Shown here: in pieces, positions 1 to 33,039 of the stretch
Layout of the letters: every line of letters begins with the position of its first letter
Numbering within the stretch: position 1 is the first letter of the stretch
Assembly: GCA_021780155.1 (NCBI GenBank)
Contig: JAJXZH010000006.1
Coordinates: 1 to 56,852 of the forward strand
Reading direction: 5' to 3'
DNA from: a bacterium
GTDB taxonomy: Bacteria; Patescibacteriota; Minisyncoccia; UBA6257; JAGOQP01
Length of the DNA stretch: 56,852 nucleotides
Notes under the pieces: model-generated
Told to the model about the DNA's origin: nothing
Databases searched by the model: none
Seen by the model: the letters and a program-made list of their open reading frames with translations, nothing else
Position numbers and translations under genes: made by a program

Positions 1-116
1 TTATTAAGCTGACTTAAATATTTCATAAGATTTTTACTAATCTTTTTTTAAATACAATATCTAAATAATCCGATTCCCATACCACTCATAAAATATCCTG
101 AACGGAATATTTTATG

Positions 117-3325: not shown

Positions 3326-3364
3326 AAATCTATCAAAGTATCAAAGTCCGACTTCCTTAGAAAT
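3326..3364. repeat. REP family B, degenerate copy B1
   Basis: AAATCTATCAAAGTATCAAAGTCCGACTTCCTTAGAAAT. It is 38/39 identical to 4243-4281 and shares the arm CGACTTCCTTAGA with the 29-nt palindromes at 6467 and 7208. Confidence 0.8.
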
Positions 3365-30357: not shown

Positions 30358-30429
30358 TCCGGTGTAGCTCAATGGTAGAGCGGCGCCCTGTTAAGGCGAT
30401 GGTTGTAGGTTCGAGTCCTACCACCGGAG
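30358..30429 (+). tRNA. tRNA-Asn (anticodon GTT)
   Basis: TCCGGTG-TA-GCTC-AATGGTA-GAGC-G-GCGCC-CTGTTAA-GGCGA-TGGTT-GTAGG-TTCGAGT-CCTAC-CACCGGA-G. Confidence 0.92.
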
Positions 30430-30431
30430 CA

Positions 30432-30606
30432 GATACAAAAAATACCCCGTGCGGGTATTTTTTGTATATGTTTTGGAGAGTAAACGGACTCGAATCAGGA
30501 AGGGGCGGAAACCAGAGGGTTTCCGTGCCGGAAATATTAAAACCGAAGGGTTTTAAGGAGCTCCGACGCAAAGTCGGAGCGACGTGAGATTCCTACCACT
30601 GGAGCA
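30432..30606 (+). repeat. tRNA-linked conserved element, copy E1 (hairpin H0 + ~105-nt core + 16-nt echo of tRNA-Asn 3' end)
   Basis: H0 is a 15-bp stem at 30433-30467. The core at 30486-30590 is about 90 percent identical to 32892-32991. The tail at 30591-30606 matches 30416-30431 at 15 of 16 positions. Confidence 0.85.
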
Positions 30607-30671
30607 GAAACTTGACTTATGAGGTCCCTTTATTATATTTTGTAATCAGAACTATCAAAAAGGAGGTTTAT

Positions 30672-32770: not shown

Positions 32771-32841
32771 GGGGTCATAGTTCAATGGTAGAATTGCGGT
32801 CTCCAAAACCGCTGATCTAGGTTCGAATCCTAGTGACCCCG
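32771..32841 (+). tRNA. tRNA-Trp (anticodon CCA)
   Basis: GGGGTCA-TA-GTTC-AATGGTA-GAAT-T-GCGGT-CTCCAAA-ACCGC-TGAT-CTAGG-TTCGAAT-CCTAG-TGACCCC-G. Confidence 0.92.
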
Positions 32842-32842
32842 C

Positions 32843-33039
32843 TGATACAAAAATACACCCTTGTGGTGTAGTTTTTGTATTTGGGTACAATGGATTCGAA
32901 TCAGGAAGGGTCGGAAACCTCGTGGGTTTCCGTGCCGGAAATATTAAAACCGAAGGGTTTTAAGGAGTGAGTAAAACGAACGACGTGAGATTCCTAGTGA
33001 CCCCGCAGATACAAAAATACACCCTTGTGGTGTAGTTTT
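32843..33039 (+). repeat. tRNA-linked conserved element, copy E2 (H0 + core + 15-nt echo of tRNA-Trp 3' end + partial second H0)
   Basis: The core is at 32892-32991. The tail at 32992-33006 is identical to 32828-32842. The duplication extends over 48 nt (32828-32875 versus 32992-33039, 47 of 48 identical). Confidence 0.85.

Follow-up and report, generated by a model that had tools for sequence, protein, structure and literature searches.

Gene-less modules at tRNA gene 3' ends of Paceibacteria carry inverted and direct copies of the neighbouring tRNA and resemble a miniature mobile element

The 56,852-nt contig JAJXZH010000006.1 (GenBank assembly GCA_021780155.1; this whole 56.8-kb stretch is called the window in the following) carries two copies of a small sequence module, E1 and E2, directly 3' of its genes for tRNA-Asn and tRNA-Trp. 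Together with copies in related genomes, we describe seven such modules at three tRNA identities (E1 to E5, Lys-1 and Lys-2 at tRNA-Asn, tRNA-Trp and tRNA-Lys), all found in Paceibacteria, i.e., bacteria of the candidate phyla radiation (CPR), and all located at tRNA gene 3' ends. They measure about 150–190 bp, are gene-less with no open reading frame (ORF) inside, and end in a tail which in 7/7 cases matches the adjacent tRNA.

Two modules behind tRNA-Asn and tRNA-Trp

At tRNA-Asn, the first and functional copy of the repeated segment is formed by the last ~16–17 nt of the tRNA together with CA (30416–30433) and is followed by H0, a hairpin which is intrinsic-terminator-like on both strands (Table 1). 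The second direct copy, the tail, closes the module and agrees with tRNA-Asn at 17/18 positions over 18 nt and at 15/16 over the tRNA part, where TCCTACCACTGGAGCA (30591–30606) departs from 30416–30431 by a single C-to-T change. At up to two mismatches, the tail pattern occurs at two sites only in the window, and none of 100 shuffled sequences gave a match. Between H0 and the core lies the left arm, in which GGACTCGAA represents the exact reverse complement of TTCGAGTCC in tRNA-Asn, the inner 9 nt being exact. Left arm and tail form helix P0, with 30469–30476 paired to 30599–30606 in the minimum free energy (MFE) fold, and all four departures from a perfect duplex of arm and tail are G-C to G.U changes on the plus strand. 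Further inside, GATTC of the junction pairs with GAATC at 30492–30496 (helix P1). The junction motif CGACGTGAGAT mirrors T stem and T loop in degenerate form and was kept in E1, E2 and E3 and, with one insertion, in E5.

An earlier, sequence-only reading of this DNA had listed tRNA-Asn, H0, the hairpins Ha, Hb and Hc, the junction and the 15/16 tail as parts of E1, and all of them are present where it had placed them. It had treated H0 plus core as one whole unit and overlooked the inverted arm; the TCGAATC which it took for a T-loop consensus is actually part of the inverted copy of the tRNA T loop and 3' end. What was then described as a scaffold with a tail is consequently redrawn here as a target palindrome around a core.

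The second copy, announced behind tRNA-Trp with the same junction, was likewise borne out: E1 and E2 have a 44-nt identical block in common, and the boundary falls between GACGTGAGAT and TCC in both. The direct repeat of E2 comprises 48 nt, of which 47 are identical to 32828–32875, the tRNA part of the tail being 32992–33007. Its left arm resembles the reverse-complemented 3' part of tRNA-Trp (p = 0.001–0.004 against shuffles), and the Asn segment is dissimilar. Since independent assemblies of this species from ENA, NCBI and Logan also contain the E1 and E2 sequences, differing by a single-nucleotide polymorphism (SNP) in Hb (L001), these sequences are no assembly artefact.

Local alignment revealed, close to the window edge, 21 nt that copy the tRNA-Gly 3' part as its reverse complement (score 14, z = 8, 0/1000 shuffles equal). 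Beyond it, 68 AT-rich nt remain up to the window edge, and no GC-rich core is visible there; this arm is possibly a third module cut by the end of the stretch.

Table 1. Positions of the modules and of further features (in the window unless another locus is named)
Feature	Position	Strand	Basis or remark
tRNA-Asn (GTT)	30358..30430	+	ARAGORN; Rfam tRNA, 71 bits; sequence
H0 of E1, perfect 15-bp A/T-rich hairpin with 5-nt loop and T run	30433..30467	+	sequence
Left arm of E1, degenerate reverse complement of tRNA-Asn nt 54-76 plus CA (TGTTTTGG..GTA..GGACTCGAA)	30469..30494	+	sequence; MFE fold
Structured core of E1, family A	30495..30579	+	sequence, fold, covariance model
Ha of E1	30506-30525	+	sequence
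Hb of E1	30537-30556	+	sequence
Hc of E1, variable hairpin	30561-30579	+	sequence
Junction motif CGACGTGAGAT of E1	30580..30590	+	sequence
Tail of E1, direct copy of tRNA-Asn from T-loop nt 60 to discriminator, plus CAGA	30591..30608	+	repeat search, sequence
tRNA-Trp (CCA), host of E2	32771..32842	+	ARAGORN, Rfam
H0 of E2, terminator-like hairpin homologous to H0 of E1	32845..32880	+	
Left arm of E2, degenerate reverse complement of tRNA-Trp nt 54-76 (GGGT-ACAAT-GGATTCGAA)	32882..32900	+	local alignment
Core of E2 (Ha 32912-32932, Hb 32944-32963) and junction motif (32981-32991)	32901..32991	+	
Tail of E2, direct copy of tRNA-Trp nt 60-76 plus second partial terminator hairpin	32992..33039	+	
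Reverse-complement copy of tRNA-Gly 3' part	69..89	-	after terminator hairpin of tRNA-Gly (116-187, -)
REP-associated Y1 (IS200-like HUH; RAYT-like) transposase-like ORF, 233 aa	6494-7195	-	only transposase-like gene in the window
Two tandem family-B modules 3' of tRNA-Lys	L035 6018-6394	-	also in L036, L037
Serine-recombinase islands at tRNA-Asn 3' end	L035 10595-20333; L042 3499-4986; L049 5545-6997 (decayed)		

Further modules, their inverted arms and their core

The sequence-only reading had proposed a search for further copies, and five more modules were found. A scan of GTDB genomes with an exact 21-mer of the core gave one true match, L005 (a 'Candidatus Wolfebacteria' metagenome-assembled genome), where copy E4 lies 3' of a tRNA-Asn gene with a ~600-nt anticodon-loop intron encoding HNH. 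Homologues of the 245-aa protein encoded next to E2 led to E3 in L021–L023, the orthologous tRNA-Trp site of a species with 74% protein identity. Intron HNH homologues, for which 3850 Patescibacteria proteins match at E ≤ 0.001, many of them 70–89% identical, were used to sample tRNA-Asn loci across the phylum; E5 is a divergent copy at tRNA-Asn in L049–L051. L035–L037, which belong to the L005 species, have two modules with a GC-rich core (family B) in tandem behind tRNA-Lys, each featuring its own terminator, its own inverted arm and a tail that copies tRNA-Lys nt 60–76. The tail of the proximal copy, Lys-1, is identical to tRNA-Lys (16/16) and the distal one is decayed, while the E5 tail shows one mismatch to its tRNA-Asn. 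The constant structured scaffold with a tRNA-specific 3' copy, read at first from E1 and E2, thus extends to all seven modules and the three tRNA identities, and in the other genomes, too, the tails track the neighbouring tRNA. Every contig of each module-bearing species carries its module, and among the 20 distinct tRNA loci examined, arms or tails occur at Asn, Trp, Lys and Gly only.

In each module, H0 and core are separated by a degenerate copy of the adjacent tRNA in reverse complement, reaching from about nt 50–54 to 76 plus CA. The left arms of E2 and E3 read GGATTCGAA, the reverse complement of TTCGAATCC in tRNA-Trp. In E4 and E5 they read TGCT-TGGTA-C-GGAC(T/C)(T/C)GAACCT, to be compared with TGCTCCGGTGGTAGGACTCGAACCTAC as reverse complement of tRNA-Asn, and both Lys arms read ..CGTGAAGGACTTGAAC where the reverse complement of tRNA-Lys is ..CCGGAAGGACTTGAAC. 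When local alignments were compared with shuffles, E3 and E4 reached the same range as E2 with their cognate tRNA, non-cognate pairs were not significant, the Lys arm gave z = 5.9, and the left arm of E1 taken alone was not significant (p = 0.15). The energy of the duplex of arm and tail, compared between cognate and non-cognate pairs, was individually significant only for E4, the alignment test being the clearer of the two. Arm and tail pair in the MFE folds of E1, E4, E5 and both Lys modules. Position 59' is C in the Asn copies E1 and E5 and T in both Trp copies, and T is also found in E4 (Asn). E4 shows on its 3' side AGGTTCG, then an inserted hairpin and then AAGTCCTACC..., which together copy the entire T arm in direct orientation, the hairpin lying within the loop.

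The resulting order is tRNA (nt 1–59), copy of nt 60–76, H0, inverted arm, core (~100 nt with two to three hairpins), junction and again a copy of nt 60–76. The unit is an imperfect palindrome of the tRNA T arm and acceptor 3' strand around a structured core, both arms of which track the neighbouring tRNA; counting the tRNA itself, three copies of the segment exist, in direct, inverted and direct orientation.

Regarding the core, 93% of the Ha cells pair across five sequences, and three of nine pairs are changed on both sides, e.g., A-U to G-C and C-G to A-U in E3. Of 500 shuffles, 15 were as good, and slid partners were much worse. The pairs of Hb were read by hand, as MAFFT alignments of whole modules and of Hb were structurally inconsistent; compensatory changes lead here from A-T to G-C in E3 and from A-T to C-G and C-G to A-T in E5. 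The earlier statement that the helices are supported consequently stands as far as Ha and Hb covary, but has to be restricted for Hb, which also carries an A.G mismatch common to E3 and E4 and the uncompensated SNP in L001. Hc was correctly given as present in E1 only and is a variable hairpin and no family feature; the Ha-Hb interval takes inserted hairpins in E3 and E5. P1, the inner end of the palindrome, reads GAATC/GATTC in E1 and E2, GAATT/GATTC in E3 and (T)GAACCT/AGGTTC(G) in E4. The topology of family B is the same as that of family A, with arm and tail as closing stem and two hairpin domains, and many substitutions separate its copies. Fold z-scores were −5.4 for E1, −4.7 for E4, −1.4 for E2 and −0.3 for E3. 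Since Ha and Hb are kept by compensation, a single-stranded fold rather than a double-stranded protein site is indicated, and a conserved fold of this kind is well supported; the compensatory helices are compatible with a fold of DNA and with one of RNA.

A covariance model of Ha and Hb (R1) finds E1 and E2 only in the window and E3 and E4 in the loci, whereas E5 is weakly recognised; applied to L039–L061, it detected no family-A core, missing the divergent E5 in L049. For the window region, E5 and the Lys modules, Rfam 15 returned tRNA matches only, at E ≤ 10 as well as at the gathering thresholds. The check proposed earlier thus yielded no entry explaining the core, and neither core family matches any Rfam family, including those of the omega-RNA or HEARO type. 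E1 had no blastn match in phage and plasmid collections. Pattern scans of viral contigs gave no match with one pattern and two chance matches in a kinase gene with another, and a scan of JGI metagenome contigs, whose pattern was too loose, gave 15 matches, all by chance in GC-rich coding DNA. Six-frame core peptides, searched for spurious ORF calls, produced 799 word candidates, of which none scored. Homologues of the 245-aa protein at ≤67% identity stand in a different context without tRNA, and the look-up of the window L33 protein returned the same species only.

Some further observations concern the host loci. The tRNA-Asn gene is split in the anticodon loop by the ~600-nt HNH insert in L005 (207–878) and also in L035, L039, L042, L049 and L052, and ARAGORN makes no call for these split genes. 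Upstream of tRNA-Trp in L021 (11470–11545, minus strand), a partial duplicate of the tRNA-Trp 5' part, GGGGTCATA, is followed by a 21-nt hairpin insert and ..GGTAGAATTGC; the 5' side of this tRNA-Trp gene has therefore also been rearranged. An extra cysteine-rich ORF (99–127 aa) without Pfam match sits between the 245-aa homologue and the tRNA-Trp module in relatives (L021 10790–11173; in L024 and L027 downstream of a 242-aa gene) and is absent from the window. A direct repeat also follows tRNA-Val in the unrelated locus L020.

Mobile element, trailer RNA or replication product

In the central block of 64 nt, E1 is 95–97% identical to E2 and E4, and E2 (Trp, window species, ~35% G+C) is 97% identical to E4 (Asn, other species), whereas identity reaches ~80% at most, and gaps are required, between the positional orthologues E2/E3 and E4/E5; the pattern is thus a horizontal one. 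E4 itself looks recombinant, as judged from its segments: its left arm is of the E5 type, with the same 4-nt deletion and 1-nt insertion, and its interior and tail are of the window type. In fact, the E4 tail (L005 1051–1068 versus 862–878) has the acceptor strand CACCGGA of the window tRNA-Asn, while the resident tRNA-Asn of L005 has CTGCGGA paired with TCCGCAG, a difference at two compensating acceptor positions. Co-conversion of the tRNA along with the intron, or import of core and tail from a window-like donor, could account for this mismatch. The window species (L034, exact L33 protein) and the L005/L035 species were assembled from the same sample, ERZ27236853, which fits an exchange of near-identical cores between both. 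Moreover, the distribution is patchy, as related tRNA-Asn loci, e.g., L039, have a plain terminator only, and the tandem Lys modules, with the proximal tail intact and the distal one decayed, show the pattern that successive insertions would leave.

We tentatively favour, at somewhat less than even confidence, the reading of the modules as the integrated form of a miniature, non-autonomous integrative element. An integrase-less integrative element was among the possibilities that the sequence-only reading had raised, and it gains from the tandem Lys modules, the patchy distribution and the near-identical cores across tRNAs and species. Such an element would insert within the T loop of the tRNA gene (about nt 59/60) and supply a replacement tRNA 3' end together with a terminator, so that the tRNA stays intact. 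The original 3' end would be displaced downstream and persist as the tail; the element proper would then comprise the new 3' end, H0, arm and core, and repeated insertions would give rise to tandem arrays. We infer movement as such, the crossover position, a single-stranded active form and the kind of enzyme involved, with less confidence in the single-stranded DNA detail than in the overall reading. In a single-stranded circle, the direct and inverted arms could pair and rebuild a double-stranded copy of the target, capped by H0 at one end and by the core at the other, i.e., a dumbbell or 'folded attP'. Exchange of a single strand between this folded circle and the T loop of the tRNA gene might follow, replication would fix the product, and the recombinase, not being encoded by the element, would act in trans. 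The observed order of segments equals the one which we derived for a one-strand exchange by a folded hairpin, which counts in favour of this reading.

Several points weigh against mobility. Neither a free or circular form, nor a within-species polymorphism of empty and filled sites, nor a recombinase was seen. In the window, about 50 of 62 ORFs of at least 100 aa were scanned, and among these, no gene for an integrase (Phage_integrase), serine recombinase, Xer, TnpB, IscB, IS110-type protein or Cas was found. At the orthologous sites E2/E3 and E4/E5, tail and helices are kept while the flanking intergenic DNA is unalignable, and conserved orthologous modules suit a parasite no better than a host function. 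The G.U-only departures in P0 of E1 hint at a fold of RNA rather than DNA, and the difference between the E4 tail and its tRNA at two acceptor positions needs a secondary event. If an element just changed from one tRNA to the next, arms of the former tRNA and a chimaeric tRNA would result, and the model gives no account of both arms matching the new one. Finally, the sample consists of seven modules, some of which are related by descent.

A bolder version of the element addresses the arms. In this version, the modules would be a new class of mobile nucleic acid, gene-less yet autonomous in form, the free form of which is a single-stranded dumbbell of ~170–190 nt with the stem as target copy and the core recruiting a host enzyme; the arms would be re-templated at each new tRNA, and this 'self-programming' hairpin would spread between co-resident CPR species. 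We regard this as conceivable, but unlikely.

Similarly unlikely, though to be taken seriously, is a structured RNA in the tRNA 3' trailer, produced by read-through of H0, in which the left arm would serve as antisense and the tail as sense decoy. The left arm could pair either with the tRNA, giving a long duplex with H0 at its tip, or with the tail, giving P0 with the core at its tip, and the RNA could act as a switch or RNase III substrate in tRNA maturation or turnover, or as a trailer-derived regulatory RNA like 3'ETS-leuZ. The sequence-only reading had likewise raised a competing trailer, which the present data neither establish nor contradict. The compensatory changes in Ha and Hb, the four G.U-compatible changes of P0 which are so on the plus strand only, the preservation of the module at orthologous loci with randomised flanks, a terminator after the tail in E2, E3 and E4, the RNase III gene in the window and the low fold z-scores of E1 and E4 all favour it. 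However, no promoter-like site was found in or before the modules, terminator-like hairpins flank them and the one upstream is strong, and E2 and E3 have unremarkable z-scores. Pairing is disrupted in two Hb variants, and the module is missing at many related tRNA-Asn loci. Tandem copies and near-identical cores across species and tRNAs would require mobility anyway.

Replication template switching at hairpins, in which fold-back copying, provoked by the T arm and the palindromic terminator, would create the direct-inverted-direct triplication with no dedicated enzyme and no function, the core being carried along or spread via gene conversion, appears improbable to us. It would explain that the series of segment, H0 and inverted segment simply prolongs the H0 palindrome into the tRNA, that the second direct copy of E2 continues through the hairpin, and that tRNA-Gly has an inverted arm with no GC-rich core in the remaining 68 nt. 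Against it stand the same ~100-nt core and junction motif at the turn-around of independent loci, tRNAs and species, the helices kept via compensatory change, and a second core family of the same topology.

It also speaks for an integrative element that serine-recombinase islands prove the 3' ends of tRNA-Asn to be landing sites of mobile DNA in this group. In L035–L037 and L042, a gene for a large serine recombinase (535 and 495 aa) follows tRNA-Asn within a few bases, and the islands encode restriction-modification (R-M), toxin-antitoxin and RadC functions (in L035 R-M, RadC, Vsr and HigB). The island side reads CCA after the discriminator and empty sites read CA-A; L039, a sibling contig, is such an empty site of the L042-type island and has no module. 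In L049, a 1.7-kb remnant with the C-terminal 136 aa of a recombinase (E = 4e-17), a Panacea-domain antitoxin and one more ORF lies between tRNA-Asn and the H0 of E5. Given this position, the module looks resident and the island a later arrival; most simply, islands would land in between the tRNA and a module already in place, which is then not counted as part of the island.

The modules could nevertheless be read as scars, i.e., attR-side remains of gene-carrying tyrosine or large serine recombinase islands whose interior was deleted, the core being an old attP arm. The islands in L035 and L042 do occupy exactly this tRNA-Asn 3' end, the decayed L049 island lies between tRNA and module, and elements of this sort are classically recognised by direct repeats that reach from the T loop to the 3' end. 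We hold this to be hardly probable, because independent deletions would not share endpoints in four or five loci with the hairpin always a few bases from the tRNA, and a relic would keep neither its helices by compensation nor 97% identity between species. The apparently resident position of the L049 module and the empty site of the L042 type without a module speak against scars as well. Moreover, serine recombinases need only 2 bp of identity and make no repeats of 16–48 bp.

Least probable is a guide RNA in the style of TnpB omega-RNA, IscB or the IS110 bridge RNA, which the sequence-only reading had also considered, with the core as scaffold and the tail as guide against the tRNA gene next to the T-loop motif: the constant scaffold, the fixed boundary, the ~16-nt 3' segment varying with the adjacent DNA and the near-universal TTCGA preceding the target segment recall such systems, but the idea is weakened because the 'guide' is paired with an internal reverse-complement copy in every module, the repeat takes in trailer bases and, in E2, a whole hairpin and therefore represents a DNA duplication, the E4 tail mismatches its own tRNA at two positions, Rfam holds no omega-RNA or HEARO-type match, and no integrase and no TnpB, IscB, IS110 or Cas effector gene lies next to any of the seven modules.

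Further candidates were rejected. A small ORF in the core is contradicted by the loop-length difference between E1 and E2, which shifts the frame. Signal recognition particle RNA, transfer-messenger RNA, group I or II introns and self-cleaving ribozymes do not fit in size and motifs and have no Rfam or ARAGORN match. The tail is not a primer-binding partner of the retroviral type, since the copies follow gene and trailer (GCA) and, except in E5, not the mature CCA, and a tRNA-like minihelix was discarded as the arm also pairs with discriminator and trailer. The genes between E1 and E2 are not serine-recombinase island cargo, having no similarity to the L035 and L042 islands.

Likeness to known elements and genomic setting

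The working principle proposed for the miniature element resembles that of CTX-phi, in which a pair of inverted dif-like sites folds back to form attP(+), which host XerCD then recombines (PMC3442271). Integrative mobile elements exploiting Xer (IMEX) of this type and the modules have in common inverted target-like sites with a spacer and the lack of an own integrase, and single-strand exchange would give the same order of segments. In contrast to the IMEX, the modules target a tRNA gene instead of dif, are gene-less with ~170 nt, and their arms copy each tRNA. The modules do possess inverted sites able to form a duplex, but their target is a tRNA gene and no Xer gene was found in the window, so that the likeness is one of working principle only and the modules are no members of this class.

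With integrative elements of tRNA genes and cis-mobilizable elements (CIME), the modules have in common the repeats from T loop to 3' end or beyond (E1, E2, Lys-1 and, with one mismatch, E5), the restored tRNA and the tandem accretion, but they differ in the missing integrase, the small size, the extra inverted target copy and the compensated core. Transposable elements of the miniature inverted-repeat kind (MITEs), repetitive extragenic palindromic (REP) sequences and bacterial interspersed mosaic elements (BIME), Correia elements and Rickettsia palindromic elements (RPE) are similar in size, in the long hairpin from inverted repeats, in the intergenic location after terminators and in being gene-less; unlike in MITEs, however, the module arms are not constant but follow the Asn, Trp or Lys tRNA, and the repeats of 16–48 nt are no short fixed target duplications. 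TnpB or IscB omega-RNA and IS110 bridge RNA also join a folded scaffold at a fixed point to a variable segment, whereas that of the modules is internally paired, has neither effector nor Rfam match and extends its match into trailer or terminator. Integron attC sites, finally, are imperfect palindromes (57–141 nt) with a variable terminal structure which are recombined as folded single strands, but their arms are no target copies, and the modules feature no IntI, cassette array or R/L box consensus.

In limited literature searches, no description of such modules was found. They look like a previously undescribed kind of miniature mobile element, to be placed as a new variant among the site-specific integrative elements at tRNA genes, with a fair chance of being something further removed. 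If mobile, the modules would be among the smallest integrative elements known and the first with both ends copying the occupied tRNA gene, one inverted and one direct. They would then bear on how an element without genes can recognise and restore an essential gene and change its target, and the core would mark where an enzyme of the host or of a helper binds in CPR bacteria, a group with mobile DNA that is, to our knowledge, little known. As a principle of site-specific insertion, a compact 'folded target mimic' is of interest as well. If the modules are trailer RNA, they would represent a new class of tRNA-linked structured RNA with built-in antisense and decoy copies of the tRNA 3' end. On either reading, they explain odd tRNA-fragment repeats in CPR genomes and should be masked or annotated in tRNA and island predictions.

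The window consists of ordinary chromosomal DNA of the CPR/Paceibacteria type with genes for SecA, LepA, MurB, TIM, Dus, the ribosomal proteins S2, S16 and L33, EF-Ts, TrmD, RNase III, RNase HII, SMC, DNA polymerase III alpha, ThrRS, MiaA, GatB, NusG and GyrB, and homologues of a neighbouring protein are labelled Paceibacterota or Minisyncoccia by their sources. Apart from the modules, and unrelated to them in sequence, the palindrome AAGGAAGTCSGACTTCCTT occurs at 3340, 4257, 6470, 6998 and 7211, flanking and once interrupting the Y1 ORF, which resembles the REP-associated tyrosine transposases (RAYT); palindromes and ORF together make up a RAYT/REP-like system in a CPR genome.

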